Virus record (IMG/VR): IMGVR_UViG_3300028797_000094
Coordinates: 166,524-230,523 of that record
Direction: 5' to 3' (one strand)
DNA from: a virus
Taxonomy: Duplodnaviria; Heunggongvirae; Uroviricota; Caudoviricetes
Length of the DNA: 64,000 nt
Shown here: in pieces, positions 53,318 through 63,365 of the stretch
Layout: every line of letters begins with the position of its first letter
Position numbering within the stretch: position 1 is the first letter of the stretch
Made by a program: the position numbers and the translations under genes
The notes under the pieces: model-generated
Databases searched by the model: none
Told to the model about the DNA's origin: nothing
The model's input: the letters and a program-made list of their open reading frames with translations, nothing else

Positions 53318-54304
53318 ATGAAGAATGCAAGTTATTCTAAAATAGATAAATATAAACAATGCCCATTTATGTATAATTTATTATATAATGAGCATATTAA
53401 TCCTTATTCACAAAGCATTGCAACAGTATTTGGAAAGGCAGTTCATGCAGCCGAAGAAGCTATTGCAAATGATATTAAGGATGGAAAATTAATTAATTAT
53501 ACTAAGTATAAAAATGATTTTATTTTAAAAATGTATAAAGCTCAATATGAGTATAAAACTGAATATTTTACTTCTGATAAACAATATGCTGAACATGCAA
53601 CAAATTATTTAGATGAAGGTATTTATCGTTTAGATACTTTTATGAAGCTTCATCCAGCATATCAAATTGTTGGTACAGAAATAAATTTTAAAGATGTTGA
53701 TATTGAAGGTGTTACTTTTCAAGGTGCAATAGACCGATTATTATATGATACTGAAAGTGATGCTTATATTATTCATGATATTAAATCTTGGGACAAACCT
53801 GCAAAAGAAGAAGAAACAAAAACTCCACTTCAATTTGTAGTTTATGCTGAAGCTATTAAAAAATTATATAATGCAGATTTAAGTAAAGTTACTTGTTTTT
53901 ATGATTTACCTTGTTGTAATATGTATCAACCAGTTGCAACTAAAGGTTGGTTACAACGTGGTCATGAACAATTAAAGCATATCTTTGAAAAAATTGAAAA
54001 TCAAGATTATGCTCCAACTCCATCTGCTTTATGTAATTGGTGTATCTATAGTAAGACAAATCCAGAAGCAAGATTTGATACAAAATTCTTATGTCCATAT
54101 CATTCTATTTGGTTAAGAGAAACAAGAGATGGAAAAGATATGACTGCATCTGAATTTTATTATACTGGTGATGCAGGCTATTTAGAGATTTTACAAATGT
54201 CATTAGATAGAAGTTGTGTTAATATGACAGCACAAGATTATGCTGTTTTATATAATAAGCATAAACAAGAAGAGAAAGAAAATAAAAAGGCTGAGAAAAA
54301 TTAG
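53318..54304 (+). CDS. RecB/Cas4-like PD-(D/E)XK nuclease with probable Fe-S cysteines
   Basis: SYSKI..YKQCP, FGKAVH, GAIDRL, IHDIK, QF.VY and CNWC..CP motifs. Confidence 0.75.
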   Translation: MKNASYSKIDKYKQCPFMYNLLYNEHINPYSQSIATVFGKAVHAAEEAIANDIKDGKLINYTKYKNDFILKMYKAQYEYKTEYFTSDKQYAEHATNYLDEGIYRLDTFMKLHPAYQIVGTEINFKDVDIEGVTFQGAIDRLLYDTESDAYIIHDIKSWDKPAKEEETKTPLQFVVYAEAIKKLYNADLSKVTCFYDLPCCNMYQPVATKGWLQRGHEQLKHIFEKIENQDYAPTPSALCNWCIYSKTNPEARFDTKFLCPYHSIWLRETRDGKDMTASEFYYTGDAGYLEILQMSLDRSCVNMTAQDYAVLYNKHKQEEKENKKAEKN

Positions 54305-54341
54305 CTAAATTATTATGTTGATACCAATTTTATGAAAGGAT

Positions 54342-54569
54342 GTGACTCATTCAAGAATGGCAAAAGTTGTACTATATCGCGATAAAGAAACTGGACAACC
54401 AGAAGATATAACTTCAGCACTTCGTCGTTTCAAAAGAAAAGTACTGGATGACCAAATACTTTATGAGTGTAAACGTCGTGAGTATTTTCTTCCGAAATCA
54501 CTTAGACGTAAAATGAAATCGATCGAAGCTAAGAAACGTCAAAAGAAAAATTATAAACCAAAATATTAA
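54342..54569 (+). CDS. rpsU: Ribosomal protein bS21 (alternative start ATG 54357)
   Basis: EDITSALRRFKRKV, RREYFLPKS and RRKMKS pattern; GCTAAATT motif at 54304. Confidence 0.85.
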   Translation: MTHSRMAKVVLYRDKETGQPEDITSALRRFKRKVLDDQILYECKRREYFLPKSLRRKMKSIEAKKRQKKNYKPKY

Positions 54570-54637
54570 TATATACTTCATATTTGTTTCCTTGACCGAA
54601 AAGTCATTAAACTAAAATATATGGAAGGAGACAAATT

Positions 54638-54862
54638 ATGTTTGAATCACAATTTTCTAGTTGGACACGCTATTATTTATTTAGCACTGGCACAAAATTT
54701 AAAGCAAGATTTTTTGACTCTAAACAAGATGCTCTAAATGCAATGTATAAATACTGTGATAAGTATGGTATTCATTTAGAAGTTTCAGAAGATGATGTTT
54801 TTGGTGTTAAATACACAAATCATGCGGGTTGTAGATTTTATCTTAATAAAGTAATCTACTAA
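54638..54862 (+). CDS. Small hypothetical protein
   Basis: AAGGAG RBS. Confidence 0.55.
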   Translation: MFESQFSSWTRYYLFSTGTKFKARFFDSKQDALNAMYKYCDKYGIHLEVSEDDVFGVKYTNHAGCRFYLNKVIY

Positions 54863-54977
54863 GAGCTAGCAAGGTACCAACTACCTTGTTAAAAACAGTT
54901 GGCACAATTTGATTTTAAATTTTTAAAAAATATATTGTATAATAATATGTAAAGAAAAACGAAAGGAAAAAATTACA

Positions 54978-55181
54978 ATGGCAAAAGTAAATCAAGAATT
55001 TGACATTAAACGAGTTTTCACAGAAACTAAAGAAGCTTTAAATAAGAACATTACAAAGAGTGAAGGTCGTATCGAAATGATAACTGAAATTGAACAATTT
55101 TTTGAAGCTAATAATTTAAAGGTTGTTCAAGAAGTTGAAGTTCCAGATGCACCAGTTGAAGAAAAAGAAAATAAGAAGTAA
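54978..55181 (+). CDS. Small hypothetical protein
   Basis: AAAGGA RBS; TTGTATAAT at 54935. Confidence 0.55.
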   Translation: MAKVNQEFDIKRVFTETKEALNKNITKSEGRIEMITEIEQFFEANNLKVVQEVEVPDAPVEEKENKK

Positions 55182-55185
55182 TTAA

Positions 55186-55380
55186 ATGCTTAATTTTTTG
55201 ACAACCTACATGGACCAACAAGATGCTTGGGTCTGTGCCGTTTGTATTGGAATTATTTTAGTTTGTTTAGTTTTAATCGGAATTCATTTAATAAGATTTT
55301 TTGCACAAGAGAATGAATTTAATAGACAAATTAATCGTCGAGAAAAAATAGAAAGAATGCGAAGAAGAAGTAAGAGATAA
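55186..55380 (+). CDS. Small single-pass membrane protein
   Basis: Hydrophobic stretch followed by a basic tail. Confidence 0.5.
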   Translation: MLNFLTTYMDQQDAWVCAVCIGIILVCLVLIGIHLIRFFAQENEFNRQINRREKIERMRRRSKR

Positions 55381-55439
55381 CTTTAAAAATTTATCTTAAA
55401 AAATTCGCTAAATTTAGTGTAAGAAAATTTAATATTTAA

Positions 55440-55510
55440 ATTCTTGTGGGCAAACTATTGGAAACGATAGGACGCAAAGCTATAGGGCCTTAAATGGTAG
55501 CCAGTTGCTT
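55440..55510 (+). ncRNA. c-di-GMP-I (GEMM) riboswitch aptamer 1
   Basis: GGCAAA-CTATTG-GAAA-CGATAG-GACGCAAAGCTAT-AGGGCCT..GGTAGC-CAGTTGC: P2 with a GAAA loop, the GACGCAAAG junction and P3. Confidence 0.9.
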
Positions 55511-55530
55511 AATTAGGTAGCTGGTTTTTT
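55500..55530 (+). terminator. Riboswitch 1 expression-platform terminator
   Basis: GCCAGTTGCTTA/TAGGTAGCTGGT stem plus T tract; overlaps the 3' end of the aptamer. Confidence 0.8.
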
Positions 55531-55547
55531 ATTTTGCTCCTAATTAA

Positions 55548-55624
55548 AATCCATAAGGCAAAACACAGGAAACTGTGTGACGCAAAGCTATAGGACCTGA
55601 GATAAATATGGTAGCCAGTTGCAT
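55548..55624 (+). ncRNA. c-di-GMP-I (GEMM) riboswitch aptamer 2
   Basis: GGCAAA-ACACAG-GAAA-CTGTGT-GACGCAAAGCTAT-AGGACCT..GGTAGC-CAGTTGC; P2 covaries with aptamer 1. Confidence 0.9.
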
Positions 55625-55653
55625 TATAGAGATATTTTGCAATTGGCTTTTTT
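55614..55653 (+). terminator. Riboswitch 2 expression-platform terminator
   Basis: GCCAGTTGCA/TGCAATTGGC stem plus T tract; overlaps the 3' end of the aptamer. Confidence 0.8.
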
Positions 55654-55675
55654 ATTATGTTTATCGGAGGTAGCT

Positions 55676-56386
55676 ATGAGAAAAAGGAATGATTATTTAT
55701 ATCATCAAACAGCGTATTACAAAACAAGAGCATTTTTAAGATTAGGTATTTTAATATTAATACTCATCTTAGCACTCTTAGGATTTTTTGCTTACTTTTC
55801 ACAGTATAGTGGAACATTTGTTATTAGCTTAGACAAATATTCCCAAGCTGGTTTAAGCCTATGTGAAAAGCCAGATTTTTTAGAACCAACAAGTATGCTT
55901 CATGCAAGTACGATAAAAAAGATTAATCCTATTGAATATAAGACAGTTCCAATAGAAAGTGTTTTAGAAACTGATGGATTATCTAAAGAACCTAATTGTT
56001 TTGGATATACTTATTATTTAAAAAATGTTGGTGAGACAATTGTTGACGTTGATGTAAATGTTATTCAAGAAGGTGCTAGACAAAACTTAGATAAGTGTTC
56101 AAGAATTTTAGTTTTAAAAGATGACGAACCTATCGGAGTTTTCAAGGTGACTGACGGTTACATTGATCCACAAGATCAGACACCACCAGACTTGTATAGA
56201 CAATACTCAGGAAAAGATGTTTATACATTTAGTATTTATCACTTGAACCCAAATGATATTGTAAAATTTACAGTTATTATTTGGTTAGAGGGTTGGGATA
56301 TTGATTGTACCGATGACAAGATTGGTGGTGCAGTTCAATACGGTATGACAATAGGTATTGTAAATTATTACAAAGAAGAAGATTAA
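55676..56386 (+). CDS. Membrane-anchored or secreted protein with an AYF motif after the hydrophobic segment
   Basis: GGAGG RBS; ...LALLGFFAYFS; YYLKNVG; C-terminal IWLEGWDIDC. Confidence 0.7.
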   Translation: MRKRNDYLYHQTAYYKTRAFLRLGILILILILALLGFFAYFSQYSGTFVISLDKYSQAGLSLCEKPDFLEPTSMLHASTIKKINPIEYKTVPIESVLETDGLSKEPNCFGYTYYLKNVGETIVDVDVNVIQEGARQNLDKCSRILVLKDDEPIGVFKVTDGYIDPQDQTPPDLYRQYSGKDVYTFSIYHLNPNDIVKFTVIIWLEGWDIDCTDDKIGGAVQYGMTIGIVNYYKEED

Positions 56387-56421
56387 AAAAATAAAATAAA
56401 ATTTAACAAGGAGAAATTAAA

Positions 56422-57525
56422 ATGAAAAAATTAAGAAGAATGTTATTTTCATCAATTATTGCTTGTTTACTATGCTTCATTACATTAGGAACAAGTACAT
56501 ATGCATGGTTCTCAATGAACCAAAAAGTTTCTGTTACAGGTATGGCTGTTACTACAGCTGTAAATGATAACTTATTTATTGCTCAATCAACTGCTAGCAA
56601 TAATAAATTAGCAGATGCTGATTTTAGAAATGCTTTACATTATACTGCTGAAGCTGCTAAATTACAACCTGTTTCTACAGTAGATGCTAATAATTTCTAT
56701 TATACAAATGAAGCTGCTGCTGATGGACATAAAGTTAGTGGCAATTACACTGCTTTAGCTAATAATGATATACTTGTTAATAGCACTCATTATCAAGGAT
56801 ATGCTGATTATGTATTCGAATTAAAAGCTATTAATGCTAATGATACAAATGAATATGTTAACTTAACTAAGTTAAATATTTTATATGAAGGTGATGTTAC
56901 AAAAGTTACTCATGCATTCCGTGTTGCTATTTTTGTTCAAGCTAATACTAGTGCATTCGATGATCTAACTGATGAACAAAAAGCTACTGCTTATACAGGT
57001 GCTTATGATGCTATTGGTGCTGTTAATTCTATTTTTGCTAAATCTGACTATGCTTACTTTACAACTGGTAAAGCTGTTAGTGCTACTGATGCATTAGCTG
57101 CTGTTTCTAATATTAATACTGCTGTTTCATTGCTAGTACCTGCAAATACAACAAAATACTTTAAAGTTACAGTTCGTATTTGGTTAGAAGGTGAAGATAC
57201 AGACTGTTATAATACTAAGTTTGTAAACTTAACTAGTCAATGGGCTTTAGATTTAGCATTTGAATTACAAGCTAATAATACTGCTGCTGTTGCAGTTTTA
57301 AGTGCTGCTGCCAATGCTACAATTGCAAGTGATGGTACAACATTAACTGCTACATTAGTTAACACTCTTGGTGAAACTGCATCAACTTATGCATGGTATA
57401 AAGTTGGTCAAGCTGCTGCTGTTGCAACAACAGAAACATATGCACCAGCTGATACTGACAAATATTATTGTGTAATTACAACTGTTAAAGGCAACGAATA
57501 TAGAACACCTGCAATTACTAAATAA
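56422..57525 (+). CDS. Secreted protein with a SipW-class signal peptide (TasA/CalY-like export signal)
   Basis: MKK-hydrophobic-GTSTYAWFS; C-terminal IWLEGEDTDC shared with the preceding gene. Confidence 0.75.
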   Translation: MKKLRRMLFSSIIACLLCFITLGTSTYAWFSMNQKVSVTGMAVTTAVNDNLFIAQSTASNNKLADADFRNALHYTAEAAKLQPVSTVDANNFYYTNEAAADGHKVSGNYTALANNDILVNSTHYQGYADYVFELKAINANDTNEYVNLTKLNILYEGDVTKVTHAFRVAIFVQANTSAFDDLTDEQKATAYTGAYDAIGAVNSIFAKSDYAYFTTGKAVSATDALAAVSNINTAVSLLVPANTTKYFKVTVRIWLEGEDTDCYNTKFVNLTSQWALDLAFELQANNTAAVAVLSAAANATIASDGTTLTATLVNTLGETASTYAWYKVGQAAAVATTETYAPADTDKYYCVITTVKGNEYRTPAITK

Positions 57526-57597
57526 TTATTGTAGAATAAATTAAAAAGAGTCAGTAATTATTTACTGGCTCTTTAATTTTCAAGAAAGGAGAAAATC

Positions 57598-58299
57598 ATG
57601 AGCAAAAGATTTAGAAAAGCTATTATAAGCTCAATTATATCAATTATTTTAATAATTCTTTGTTTGACTACATGTGCTTTTGCATGGTTTTCTTTAAGTA
57701 CTGCAAAAAATATTGATGGTCCAGCAATTGAAATAAATGCCTCTGGTATGGCTGTAAATTATGAAGTTTATAAATATGAGAATGATGAATTTATAGAAGC
57801 AACTAATTCAAGTGGAGCTTTTAATTTAAGAGCTTATGATTCTATTATTCAATCAAGAAATAATAATATTTCGATTATTTTAAAATTATTTATAACTGGG
57901 CAACCAATATTAGACCATCAAGATATTACTATTATAATTACTTATAATAATACTCCAATGAGTGGTATGTATTTATCAAATGTAGTTTATTTTAAGTTTG
58001 CTACATTAAATATAAATTCGAATGACCCAGAAACAATTTATACTTGTGCTATAAATAGTTTTGATCAAAACAATAATAAATATACTTTTATAAATAACAA
58101 TGATAAAAATAGTATAAGTTATATAATTTCTAATTATGAAAATTACATAGTTAATAATGCTTTAGAAGTTTATGTTCAGATAAACTATGATCAAGATTTA
58201 GTTGAATCATCTGGAACAATTAGTTTAGAAGATTTTAATTCAGAGATTACATATACTTCTGACATTACTACTTTAAGTATTTTTGCAGGAGATAATTAA
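57598..58299 (+). CDS. Secreted protein with a SipW-class signal peptide
   Basis: MSKR-hydrophobic-TCAFAWFS; terminator-like hairpin at about 57547-57574 upstream. Confidence 0.7.
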   Translation: MSKRFRKAIISSIISIILIILCLTTCAFAWFSLSTAKNIDGPAIEINASGMAVNYEVYKYENDEFIEATNSSGAFNLRAYDSIIQSRNNNISIILKLFITGQPILDHQDITIIITYNNTPMSGMYLSNVVYFKFATLNINSNDPETIYTCAINSFDQNNNKYTFINNNDKNSISYIISNYENYIVNNALEVYVQINYDQDLVESSGTISLEDFNSEITYTSDITTLSIFAGDN

Positions 58300-58300
58300 T

Positions 58301-60511
58301 ATGAAGAAAATTTTTACTTTAATTATTTCAGTTTTATTAGTATTTTTCAGTTTAATTAGTATAACTTATGCTTGGCTAACTCTACAAACAAGCATTGATT
58401 TACCACTTTCAGGAAGTGTATTTACTGCATATTTTCATTGTGGAACTGGTACTGAACAAGACCCATATGTAATTACAAAACCACAACATTTATATAACTT
58501 AACAATGCTTTATCAACATTTAAATGGTTTTGATGAAGACCAAGTTTATATTGAAATTGGTTGTGATGGAAATTGTGGTCATACTCATAATAATGATTTA
58601 TTAATTGGTGGCCAAGCTACTACTTTAGATATGTCAGATTATGATGATTTTGTGCCAATTGGAACATATGCACATCCATTTAAAGGTATATTAAATGGTA
58701 ACAATTTTATTGTTGATAGCCTATCTATTGTCGGTCAAAGTGAACAAGGTGTCGGTATTTTTGGTTATGTAACTAATGAAGCTAATATTAGTGATATTTA
58801 TTTTGATAATTTAATTATAGATATTTCTAATTGTTCAAATAATAGTTATGTTGGTTATATTGCAGGTTATATTGAAGATGCAACTTGTTTTGAAAACGTT
58901 TACATAAATAATTGTGAACTTTGTGGAACTGCAAGTAATTTCCAAAGTGAATGGGGATATTTTGGTAAATGTGATAATGCTGCAACTTTAGAACAATTTA
59001 TTAAGAAAGCAAATGGTGAAGGCCAAGGTAATGACTGGGGTGGATCTATTGATATGCTTTCATTAAATCAACGTATTAGATATTTTCTAAATAATGTTAG
59101 CAAAACAGGTTTAAATGCCGGCACTTATAATTATGCAACAGCTGTAACATATAATAAGTCTATCTATACAAAATCTAGTAGTAATGTATTTAGATATTAT
59201 GTTGATGATTATCAATCTTATTCAACATATTCTGGTTCTACTTATAATAATGACCCAGCATCAAATCAAATTATTTATCGTTTTGTTGGTGGTGCAAATA
59301 ATGCTCGTGCAACAACAAGTAATCCAACTTCAACTTCTGGTACATATTTCTATGATATTCCAGCTTCTTATGTTCCATTATTAACAAAAGGTGAATCAGA
59401 AGGTTATGCAGTTGAAGAGGGAAATACAGGATATTTTGCTGGTGATTTAATGCACGGTAGTAATACTTTAAGAACTGCATCTTATGCAAATAGCTATATT
59501 GGAAATTCTTATGCAAATGGTGAATTAGAAGTATTATCAAATTCTACAGTTTCTTATAATGCAAATAATTATAAGAAAATTAATAATGGTCATACTAATA
59601 ATTTATTATCTGGTTATTCTGCAGATATTGCTGCTGACAAATATCCAGGTTATGCAAATGCATATCAAAAAATGTGTGGTGTTTTAAGTTCTTCAACTTT
59701 TGTTCAAGGACTTCACTTTACAGGAAGCACAATTAGTTCATCAAGTACAACTACTGTTCCAAAAGCTTATATTAATGGTCAGTTAATAAATAATTATAAA
59801 ACATTAAGAAGCTCAGTAGATTTTTATGCTAAAGAAAATGGTTCAATTAAATTCTTTGCAGGTAGTTATTATAATACTGTTGGAACAAATTCAGATTCAT
59901 TCTTCTCATTGCATACTGTAACAAGAAGTGGAAATAATATAACTACAAATCAAATTTTTTATATTTATGCTAATACAAATGAAGCAACAAAGAAAACTTA
60001 TCCACATTTGTATTATGATGAAAATAATAATTTAATTGCTGCAGGTTATGGAAATAATGTAACTAAAGGTGATTTAGAATTTGATATGAGATGGCTTCAT
60101 AATGCTCCACCTGTTGCAAATGCAGTTTATTATTTTGAAATTCCCGTAAATGCTGGTGAATTTGCTCTTGGCTCTGTTGCAGCTAATAAAACAAAAGGTA
60201 CATATTTAATGTATCTTGATATTGGTTCAAATGGTGCAAGTGATGATAATGATAAGATTGATGATTTTGGCTCAGTTGAATATAGAACAAATCCAAACAC
60301 AATAGATCACAGTATTTTAATTTTAAGATATGACCAAAATTCTGAAATTGATTTTAGTATTAAAGTAGAGTTTACAAATAATACTTATACTATTACAACA
60401 AGTGAAAATATTACAGTCATAATTGCAATTTTAGATGACGATTATACTTATATATTTGATGATGAAACACTGTCCTCAACCACAGGACAATATATAAGAC
60501 CACAGACGTAA
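58301..60511 (+). CDS. Large secreted protein with a SipW-class signal peptide and a GLUG-type domain
   Basis: MKK-hydrophobic-SITYAWL; GTGTEQDPYVI, PIG...PFKG.LNGN, GIFGY and VGYIAGY motifs. Confidence 0.7.
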   Translation: MKKIFTLIISVLLVFFSLISITYAWLTLQTSIDLPLSGSVFTAYFHCGTGTEQDPYVITKPQHLYNLTMLYQHLNGFDEDQVYIEIGCDGNCGHTHNNDLLIGGQATTLDMSDYDDFVPIGTYAHPFKGILNGNNFIVDSLSIVGQSEQGVGIFGYVTNEANISDIYFDNLIIDISNCSNNSYVGYIAGYIEDATCFENVYINNCELCGTASNFQSEWGYFGKCDNAATLEQFIKKANGEGQGNDWGGSIDMLSLNQRIRYFLNNVSKTGLNAGTYNYATAVTYNKSIYTKSSSNVFRYYVDDYQSYSTYSGSTYNNDPASNQIIYRFVGGANNARATTSNPTSTSGTYFYDIPASYVPLLTKGESEGYAVEEGNTGYFAGDLMHGSNTLRTASYANSYIGNSYANGELEVLSNSTVSYNANNYKKINNGHTNNLLSGYSADIAADKYPGYANAYQKMCGVLSSSTFVQGLHFTGSTISSSSTTTVPKAYINGQLINNYKTLRSSVDFYAKENGSIKFFAGSYYNTVGTNSDSFFSLHTVTRSGNNITTNQIFYIYANTNEATKKTYPHLYYDENNNLIAAGYGNNVTKGDLEFDMRWLHNAPPVANAVYYFEIPVNAGEFALGSVAANKTKGTYLMYLDIGSNGASDDNDKIDDFGSVEYRTNPNTIDHSILILRYDQNSEIDFSIKVEFTNNTYTITTSENITVIIAILDDDYTYIFDDETLSSTTGQYIRPQT

Positions 60512-60587
60512 TTAAGTTTACGTCTTTTTTAAATTTTAGATCTTTTTATTGTATAATATATGTAAAGATATAAAAGGAGAAAAAATT

Positions 60588-61106
60588 ATGCATTTTACTA
60601 GTGCTAGTGCAAACAAGTATTTGAATCAATTAAATGCTGAAAAAGATTTAATTGTTAGTCGTGAACGTGATGTTGCAACATTTACTGCTGCTACAGTTGA
60701 AAAACTTGAAGAAGTTGCTCCAAAGTATGATTTTCATGAAACTCAAGCAAAGTTATTTGAAATTGAAGATAAGATTATTAGATTAAAACATGCATTAAAT
60801 GTATTTAATACTACTACAGTTTTAGAAAGTTTTATCACATCAAATGGTGAAGCATTGACTGTTGATAGTGCATTAGTTTATATGGCTATTTTAAGTCAAA
60901 GAATTTCAAAGTATGAGCGTATGGCAAAAACTGAAGCTAAGAAATCTTATAGCTATAGCAATGGTTTAATTGTTTATAGATATGCAAATTACTCAGTACC
61001 ACAAGCTAAATTTGCTTATGAAAATGCTCAAAAAGAATTACATGAATTACAGTTAGCTTTAGATAAAGTTAATAATACTGTTGAATTTGAAGTTAATTTA
61101 GATTAA
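60588..61106 (+). CDS. Coiled-coil protein resembling the DIP1984 family
   Basis: KHALNVFNTTT, TVDSALVY, YRYANY and LQLALDKVNNTVEFEV pattern; TTGTATAAT at 60549. Confidence 0.5.
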   Translation: MHFTSASANKYLNQLNAEKDLIVSRERDVATFTAATVEKLEEVAPKYDFHETQAKLFEIEDKIIRLKHALNVFNTTTVLESFITSNGEALTVDSALVYMAILSQRISKYERMAKTEAKKSYSYSNGLIVYRYANYSVPQAKFAYENAQKELHELQLALDKVNNTVEFEVNLD

Positions 61107-63290: not shown

Positions 63291-63365
63291 AGGGGTTTCG
63301 GTAAGTGGTTATGCCAGGAGTCTTCAAAACTTCTATCGTGGGTTCGAATCCTACAACCCCTGCCA
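63291..63365 (+). tRNA. tRNA-Trp with UCA anticodon (opal-decoding), CCA encoded
   Basis: Acceptor stem AGGGGTT/AACCCCT, discriminator G, CCA end. Anticodon stem GGAGT/ACTTC with loop CT-TCA-AA (63324-63326). T arm GTGGG-TTCGAAT-CCTAC; short variable loop. Confidence 0.92.

Follow-up and report, generated by a model that had tools for sequence, protein, structure and literature searches.

Can a large phage read a second messenger of its host through RNA? This question is raised by a leader in the genome of a tailed phage (Caudoviricetes; IMG/VR record IMGVR_UViG_3300028797_000094). The stretch analysed here (64,000 nucleotides, positions 166,524 to 230,523 of that record; hereafter, the window) carries two consecutive riboswitches of the cyclic di-guanosine monophosphate-I (c-di-GMP-I) class in front of a four-gene operon (hereafter, the cassette). 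An initial annotation of the sequence had placed a tandem pair of c-di-GMP-I ON switches at 55407-55676, and this placement was accurate. From the features described below, we consider it probable that the pair consists of functional c-di-GMP ON switches, which gate the cassette. For this pair, we infer ligand binding, the ON direction, a digital response, the start site of transcription and the role of the cargo proteins.

Aptamers and terminators of the leader

We scanned the whole window with the Rfam models. Exactly two riboswitch matches were found and both belong to the c-di-GMP-I model (RF01051, GEMM-I), for which the gathering score is 35 bits. Aptamer 1 is located at 55439-55512 (+) with a score of 60.8 bits (E 2e-9) and aptamer 2 at 55547-55626 (+) with a score of 65.1 bits (E 1.7e-10). 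Both matches cover model positions 1-87. When the complete virus record (237,392 bp) was rescanned, the same two aptamers were the sole matches. Thus, the search with a c-di-GMP-I covariance model, which had been proposed as a check of the initial annotation, recovered two complete aptamers well above the cut-off.

The P2 stem is CTATTG/CGATAG in aptamer 1 and ACACAG/CTGTGT in aptamer 2, and each is closed by a GAAA loop. These stems are unlike at five of the six positions but all six pairs are formed in each copy, in agreement with the covariation that had been noted before. Across 18 related aptamers, there are 12 distinct P2 sequences, every one of which keeps 5-6 of the 6 pairs. For the ligand contacts, we use the numbering of Vc2, in which the relevant positions are G20, A47 and C92. 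Model position 11, which is directly before GCAAA and equivalent to G20, is G in both copies (G55449 in aptamer 1 and G55557 in aptamer 2); the alignment to RF01051 agrees with the earlier reading in this respect. The ACGCAAAGC core, including the A47 equivalent (the first A of GCAAAG after P2), is present in both copies. The C92 equivalent, which is the C of GUUGC after the P3 3′ strand, is also present in both (C55508 and C55622). It should be mentioned that A20, instead of G20, is a signature associated with c-AMP-GMP recognition (PMC9481103). This hallmark of GEMM-Ib is absent from the two window copies. The P3 stem of aptamer 2 (CCUGAG...UAUGG) is near the 11-nt tetraloop receptor. In aptamer 1, P3 is shortened to CCUUAAAUGG: the distal part is gone and 13 model positions are deleted. 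When the aptamers were folded alone by thermodynamic calculation, the Rfam fold was not reproduced. This is expected because the ligand and tertiary contacts stabilise that structure.

Each aptamer runs into a terminator of its own. Terminator 1 (55499-55535, +) comprises a 12-pair hairpin at 55499-55526 and a T-run, and was obtained by both terminator scan and minimum free energy (MFE) folding (-14.2 kcal/mol). Terminator 2 (55613-55657, +) comprises an 11-pair hairpin at 55613-55648 (-18.1 kcal/mol) and a T-run, and was seen in the MFE fold; the terminator scan missed it because its loop is 14 nt. The 5′ strand of both terminators starts with AGCCAGTTGC, which is the P3 3′ strand plus the C92 position. 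Because AGCCAGTTGC is common to aptamer and terminator, the two folds are mutually exclusive. The overlap of each aptamer with the 5′ strand of its own terminator, on which the initial annotation had based the ON logic, is therefore real and has ON geometry. Without ligand, the terminator state is favoured over the aptamer state by 10.4 kcal/mol in unit 1 and by 13.9 kcal/mol in unit 2, and the entire leader is far more stably folded than its shuffled controls (z = -6.3). The two units are arranged serially in one leader, each with its own expression platform, and neither an open reading frame (ORF) nor a consensus promoter was found between them. Terminator 2 is followed by a ribosome-binding site (RBS), GGAGG, at 55666-55670 (+) and then by the ATG codon of gene 1 at 55676.

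We propose the following mechanism, in which the two units act independently of each other. Transcription most likely initiates at a promoter class of the phage itself, GCTAAATT, which is located directly upstream of aptamer 1. During its synthesis, each aptamer would either capture host c-di-GMP or stay empty. If c-di-GMP is bound, the P3 3′ strand and C92 would be held in the aptamer and the overlapping terminator would be blocked. If not, the terminator hairpin, which is predicted to be more stable by 10-14 kcal/mol, would form and the polymerase would halt at the T-run. Only transcripts that clear both checkpoints would reach the RBS and ATG at 55666-55678. Because two checkpoints have to be passed, the output would rise approximately with the product of the two occupancies, and this would give low leak and a steeper response.

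A similar design has been studied in Bc3-5, the triple tandem of cspABCDE in Bacillus thuringiensis CT-43 (Zhou et al. 2016, PMC4759541). In both cases, complete units are arranged in series, the 5′ strand of the terminator of each unit overlaps C92, P1 and part of P3, and the operon is one for cell-surface proteins from Bacillota. Experiments with Bc3-5 showed that this overlap gives ON control, which is the logic predicted here, and that control becomes tighter and more digital as more units are placed in tandem (PMC4759541). There are also differences. Bc3-5 has three units and its cargo possesses cell-wall anchor motifs, whereas the array described here has two units, is carried by a phage behind a phage-specific promoter motif and precedes proteins with putative SipW-type signals.

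The phage genome and its promoter-like motif

The window belongs to a 237-kb IMG/VR record, which is 100% complete according to CheckV and has a GC content of 0.292. The record holds virion genes including those for a head maturation protease and a tail sheath protein. Tyrosine or serine recombinase, integrase and resolvase genes were not found in the phage; the absence of integrase and resolvase fits a lytic lifestyle but is no proof of it. The public runs that contain the sequence are bovine gut metagenomes. By megablast, the deposited phage genomes gave no match to 54300-58300.

An independent relative was found in the 223-kb contig IMGVR_UViG_3300021400_000048 (loci L011, L035 and L132 of our collection). 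Its layout is the same. Upstream, genes for a clamp loader, an ORF and an exonuclease (76-80% identical) are followed by bS21 and small ORFs. Then, GCTAAATT and two RF01051 aptamers (55.2 and 64.6 bits) are present, each aptamer with an overlapping terminator. Downstream of the switches, there are a four-gene cassette, two conserved ORFs and tRNA(UCA). The cargo proteins of this relative are just 34-44% identical to those of the window phage, yet both switches are kept. Therefore, the switches have survived a long divergence. The two aptamers of L011 are not alike: the upstream one (L011 4960-5033) possesses A at the position-20 equivalent and the P2 stem ACACAG/CTGTGT, and the downstream one possesses G20.

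The closest homologues of the cargo proteins are bacterial. Moreover, the 11 tryptophan (Trp) codons of the cassette are all TGG, whereas most other genes behind GCTAAATT use TGA for 70-90% of Trp. Both features would be expected if a host insertion had been mis-assembled into the contig, or if the supposed phage were a bacterial island. However, the arrangement and its synteny recur in the independent 223-kb contig. In addition, a 1046-nt contig from another study spans 55174-56217 with about 94% identity, running from the upstream small ORF through the motif and both switches into gene 1, and further contigs from public runs cover 53472-55148. The GC content of the cassette (0.23-0.32) is in line with that of the genome, the phage promoter motif is directly upstream of it, and the 237-kb record is complete and contains virion genes. 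The use of TGG as a sign of foreign origin was rejected, as the neighbouring replication genes are TGG-only too; it is at most a weak oddity. Thus, a mis-assembly or a bacterial island is largely refuted and extremely improbable: the synteny in a second jumbo phage and the independent contig across the junctions bear out that the locus is phage-borne, not a chimeric host insertion. As a separate observation, a tRNA gene is located at 63291-63362 in the window; its anticodon loop is CUUCAAA (anticodon UCA, which reads UGA), and the related phage has a conserved counterpart (L011 12011-12082).

The promoter-like motif in front of aptamer 1 is at 55404-55420 (+), with the core GCTAAATT at 55407-55414. 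On the + strand, GCTAAATT occurs 42 times against 9.5 expected. About 30 copies are intergenic and lie 20-50 nt ahead of an RBS and ATG, and their extended consensus is tttatttGCTAAATTawwtGa. Genes downstream of these copies include those for the head maturation protease, tail sheath, nrdD, a NUDIX protein and a homing endonuclease. From this distribution, GCTAAATT is a predicted phage-specific promoter class that covers virion genes. The initial annotation had called the copy at 55407 a late-type motif. The motif is real and does precede virion genes, but it precedes nrdD and a homing endonuclease as well; late timing of the class is plausible. In the related phage L011, GCTAAATT is kept upstream of the switches, and 15 nt of the spacer between motif and aptamer are deleted there.

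One contig bears on transcription. In a rumen metatranscriptome library, a contig of 269 nt matches 55436-55702 with 99% identity and runs through both terminators into gene 1. Its first base is 3 nt ahead of aptamer 1, and the same library shows no depth over the preceding 1.2 kb. Transcription of the leader, with occasional read-through, is weakly suggested by this contig. The depth of the RNA run over the aptamers was not used as an expression level because it is inflated by short pieces of riboswitches from other organisms.

The cargo operon and its bacterial counterparts

The cassette consists of four genes on the + strand. Gene 1 (55676-56386, ATG 55676) encodes 236 amino acids with an N-terminal membrane anchor and a C-terminal IWLEGWDIDC motif. 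Gene 2 (56422-57525) encodes 367 amino acids with a signal anchor, a conserved TYAWFSMN motif, a beta-sandwich core and a C-terminal immunoglobulin (Ig)-like domain. Gene 3 (57598-58299) encodes 233 amino acids with a signal anchor and an AFAWFS motif. Gene 4 (58301-60511) encodes 736 amino acids from ATG 58301, a large predicted exported protein with a signal anchor and a TYAWL motif. The operon is closed by a terminator-like hairpin at 60504-60525 with a T-run to 60531 (+; terminator scan). In genes 1-4, the hydrophobic N-terminal segment is followed by FAYF, YAWF, FAWF and YAWL, respectively, and the motif IWLEGxDxDC is common to genes 1 and 2.

Family searches with the cargo proteins gave sub-threshold GldM_2nd and Hoc-like matches only, and no NCBIfam signal model matched at E <= 1. 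A GLUG-type domain had previously been suggested for gene 4. Pfam does not support it, and only weak Atlas leads below 0.85 point to GLUG-motif proteins. Homologues of gene 1 follow the riboswitch in bacterial operons and are present in both related phages (the 223-kb relative and a third phage contig, L003). Homologues of gene 3 were found only in these two phages, and the gene 4 product is 77% identical in L003. Gene 2 has 411 unnamed homologues in Clostridia. Its relatives occur in 248 GTDB species, for example Ruminococcus flavefaciens, R. albus, Christensenellaceae, Oscillospiraceae, Lachnospiraceae and many rumen metagenome-assembled genomes (MAGs). In 46 aligned homologues, A28, W29, F30, N33, V36, G40 and the R-W-EG-D-C motif are invariant; AWF is thus invariant throughout the alignment. 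As a side observation, a 54-kb viral contig (L133, IMGVR_UViG_3300031992_000131) with a distant gene 2 homologue carries a ROOL RNA at 1401-2021 (284.7 bits), about 2 kb upstream of this homologue and flanked by three tRNA genes.

We modelled the gene 2 protein with AlphaFold2 (predicted local distance difference test score, 86). In the model, an N-terminal helix is followed by a disordered region (residues 25-48), a beta-sandwich core and the C-terminal Ig-like domain. The Ig domain matches phage Hoc (Z 8.6), and the best structural match of the core alone has Z 6.3. The core was also compared with donor-strand fibre subunits (Pyrodictium cannulae, Sulfolobus thread, the TasA fibre and Pyrobaculum bundling pili), and the matches were weak (Z 4.4-5.0). 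A profile search of PDB sequences with gene 2 found nothing but an Ig domain. Assignment of a fold to gene 2 was dropped: with the whole protein, Foldseek gave only adhesin or Ig matches with low template-modelling scores, and the core did not exceed Z 6.3. The disordered, conserved mature N-terminus of the modelled protein could act as a donor strand. A fibre-like function of the cargo is a lead and not a result.

Six bacterial loci with close gene 2 homologues (L004, L006, L007, L008, L009 and L010) were chosen by identity; L009 encodes the same protein as L008, so the six loci represent five distinct proteins. All have a c-di-GMP-I aptamer on the same strand. It directly precedes the operon in five of the six; L006 is the exception, where it follows the gene 2 homologue and precedes further paralogues. 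In the six loci, a terminator overlaps the 3′ strand of each aptamer. The operons of bacterial homologues often start or finish with genes for EAL phosphodiesterases. Furthermore, SipW-type signal peptidases are encoded in four of the retrieved loci, among them L004, L008 and L010 (TIGR02228, 60.7-78.5 bits versus a cut-off of 51.85).

Rfam detected multiple aptamers in three other bacterial loci, namely two each in L318 and L283 and three in L341. The first of the two in L283 is a match to a variant model, c-di-GMP-I-GGC (RF03167). L318 comes from a Bacilli MAG (GC 0.286), and its two aptamers, 112 nt apart, are immediately before homologues of genes 1 and 2. The source of L341 is the MAG of a rumen Bacillota (GC 0.292). 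Its first aptamer (2663-2736) possesses A20 and the P2 stem ACACGG/CTGTGT, matching the first aptamer of L011 (A20, ACACAG/CTGTGT); its second and third aptamers possess the P2 stem GCAAGA/TCTTGT, which is identical to that of the second aptamer of L011. Thus, the order of A20 first and G20 next, as well as the P2 sequences, is common to a phage and a bacterium. In the window, aptamer 2 has the ACACAG stem but G20, and aptamer 1 is similar to the L318 type. Both L318 and L341 have bacterial flanks (GH18 hydrolase, Wzy_C, AbiEii, HEPN and DUF2357), and tblastx between these two loci and the phage genome gave only short AT-rich noise. Reading of TGA as Trp (code 4) in L318 and L341 was rejected, as the in-frame TGA codons sit at ORF ends and are ordinary stops. 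In several bacterial loci, a gene for a McrB-like AAA protein was also seen, in some together with DUF2357 (McrC-like): L004 10054-14321, L008 10057-14412, L010 11808-15004 and L341 5889-8180. In L004, L008 and L010, these restriction-like genes sit between two genes for SipW-type signal peptidases.

The order in L011 and L341 suggests a conserved two-specificity array, in which the first aptamer may bind 3′,3′-cyclic GMP-AMP (cGAMP) or be promiscuous and the next may bind c-di-GMP. In metagenome loci of the GACGCAAAGCTATAGG...AGCCAGTTGC subclass, 21 of 87 distinct aptamers have A20. Therefore, A20 variants are common in gut and rumen Bacillota, beyond Geobacter-type bacteria. These findings bring up the question of whether the window switches have another ligand (a cyclic dinucleotide such as 3′,3′-cGAMP, instead of or beside c-di-GMP) or another logic (OFF switches). 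The A20 signature of the upstream aptamer in L011 and L341 and its frequency in the subclass would favour the former, and the fact that most characterised c-di-GMP-I switches of C. difficile are OFF switches (PMC7699646) would favour the latter. However, both window copies have G20. Moreover, the 5′ strand of the terminator is the 3′ strand of the aptamer, there is no separate anti-terminator, the terminator is the default fold and the ON layout has been validated for Bc3-5 (PMC4759541). We therefore regard a different ligand or logic as very unlikely for the window pair, and continue with c-di-GMP ON switches.

Because the bacterial homologues carry switches of the same kind, some arranged as doubles and one as a triple, with the same P2 sequences, we conclude that the array and its cargo are host-derived. 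To judge from these sequences, they were captured together from low-GC rumen Bacillota, which would also be the best candidates for the host.

The case for regulation and its possible role

Several points weigh against regulation of a surface-protein module by the two switches. With the truncated P3, the GAAA tetraloop of aptamer 1 may have no proper receptor. In folds, the P1 of aptamer 2 is weak (about 4 pairs, AUAA/UUAU), and neither sequence reading nor folds gave a convincing P1 helix for aptamer 1. Contaminating DNA may be the source of the 269-nt RNA-library contig, and a 5′ end cannot be established from contigs. The kinetics at the terminators may differ from those of the host enzyme if the GCTAAATT promoters are served by a phage-modified polymerase. 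Among bacteria, the aptamer core was found upstream in 19 of 67 species-level loci with enough upstream sequence (6 of them tandem), and these are mostly the closest relatives; the riboswitch link thus holds for close relatives and not for the whole family. The third related phage contig, L003 (a 65-kb Logan contig), has the cassette (36-77% identity) without a riboswitch: the 78-nt gap upstream (L003 7196-7274) contains neither a riboswitch nor GCTAAATT, and the neighbourhood differs, the cassette being placed after a xanthine/uracil permease gene. Therefore, this control is dispensable in some lineages. Concerning the cargo, the four proteins gave no above-threshold match to Pfam, PHROG or NCBIfam, and the gene 2 core matches the TasA fibre (8aur) only weakly (Z 4.6, 137 residues, 17% identity; VIA-align).

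Some of these points could also mean that the aptamers are inherited baggage of an acquired cassette and provide no useful regulation, so that the leader always terminates or always reads through. For example, a modified or phage-encoded RNA polymerase might ignore intrinsic terminators. Such baggage would be in keeping with the clear host origin of array and cargo, with the retention of the cassette in L003 without any switch, and with the phage-specific promoter class, which may be transcribed by a polymerase unlike the host holoenzyme to which the kinetic switch is adapted. However, two phages retain intact copies of both aptamers and both terminators in spite of the divergence of their cargo to 34-44% identity. 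The P2 stems are unlike between copies and fully compensated, and every ligand-contact base is kept. Had decay been neutral, one or more of the four units would have been lost over such a divergence. Thus, useless baggage seems unlikely to us, and we favour functional c-di-GMP ON switches.

How might the phage benefit from the switches? The four proteins are homologous to products of fibre- or adhesin-like operons in rumen and gut Clostridia. The cargo can be compared with the SipW fibre operons, namely sipW-bsaABC of Clostridium perfringens (PMC7395162) and tapA-sipW-tasA of Bacillus subtilis. In these operons, as in the cassette, an A-(Y/W)-(F/L) motif comes after a hydrophobic N-terminus, a number of proteins of this kind are encoded together and the core is a beta-sandwich (in the case of gene 2, in the model). 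The operons of the bacterial homologues also encode SipW-type peptidases. Unlike these systems, the cargo shows no sequence similarity to TasA or BsaA in Pfam and PDB sequence searches, and the phage operon has no sipW. Furthermore, BsaA is regulated by a two-component system and not by a riboswitch (PMC7395162). A SipW gene is absent from the entire 237-kb phage (no TIGR02228 match), and neither a GGDEF nor an EAL domain was found in the phage. For export of its cargo, the phage would rely on the SipW enzyme of the host. The switch would couple expression of the surface proteins to conditions under which the host induces its processing machinery and the matching fibre system. Since the homologous host operons, SipW included, tend to be behind the same switch class, dependence on SipW would rationalise keeping the switch: the substrates would be made only once the environment for their processing and assembly is induced. 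From the sequence features, the surface proteins are most likely made only in host cells in the high-c-di-GMP (sessile) state. Candidate roles are aggregation, biofilm retention, receptor masking and superinfection exclusion.

The initial annotation had regarded such a circuit as rarely documented in lytic phages. This claim was too strong. Among the tandem riboswitches known, those of the c-di-GMP-I class are the commonest (347 doublets, 12 triplets; PMC9481103). On phage DNA, c-di-GMP-I riboswitches were already part of the earliest descriptions of the class; they are present at the lysis module of PhiCD119 and, as Cdi1_4 and Cdi1_5, in the C. difficile prophages phiCD630-1 and -2 (PMC3649979, PMC7699646). 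In addition, a strict aptamer core pattern was found in at least 118 IMG/VR contigs. Among the 118 IMG/VR loci listed, a second copy within 400 nt occurs only in the related jumbo phage. The tandems surveyed by Sherlock et al. 2022 (PMC9481103) belong to the same class, with several aptamers each having an expression platform and with a predicted pseudo-cooperative digital response. That survey covered bacterial genomic databases, and the word 'phage' appears nowhere in its text, whereas the arrays reported here are in jumbo-phage genomes. Cdi1_4 and Cdi1_5 are likewise phage-borne c-di-GMP-I switches that read a host second messenger. However, each of them is a lone OFF switch in a temperate phage of about 50 kb and controls the antitoxin RNA of a type I toxin-antitoxin pair (PMC3649979, PMC7699646). 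In contrast, the phage of the window is 237 kb in size and lacks an integrase, and its two copies have ON geometry and precede predicted exported structural proteins. Thus, the riboswitch design is already known. The interest is in its carrier, a jumbo phage without integrase, in the promoter of the phage, in the regulon of putative SipW substrates that was captured with the array, and in the variation between A20 and G20 across orthologous arrays.

The value of this locus is therefore in its context and not in a new mechanism, the riboswitch design being well known. If the switches act as proposed, the locus would show concretely how a large and apparently virulent phage can sense a second messenger of its host via RNA alone. 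The signal would gate a host-derived module of exported surface proteins instead of a choice between lysis and lysogeny. Regulator and regulon appear to have been captured as one block from low-GC rumen Bacillota, a pointer to the lineage that hosts this uncultivated jumbo phage. The locus also links a large unannotated protein family (248 species-level matches) to c-di-GMP control and SipW processing. A bolder idea, which we consider rather unlikely, is that this lineage of jumbo phages took over cyclic-dinucleotide arrays of the host as a decision circuit for surface remodelling, with G20 and G20 in the window phage, A20 and G20 in its relative and the candidate host, and possibly a requirement for two dinucleotides. 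An array of A20 and G20 could demand two dinucleotides, for example 3′,3′-cGAMP and c-di-GMP, before export of fibres processed by host SipW. If this is true, a virulent phage would read the lifestyle, and possibly the defence signalling, of its host to time the production of extracellular fibres, which would serve aggregation, biofilm retention or superinfection exclusion.

Past the terminator of the operon, the window gene at 60549-61106 shows a weak match, below the cut-off, to the DIP1984/DUF6847 family. A promoter-like site for this gene (TTTAAA-18-TATAAT) is located at 60528-60557.

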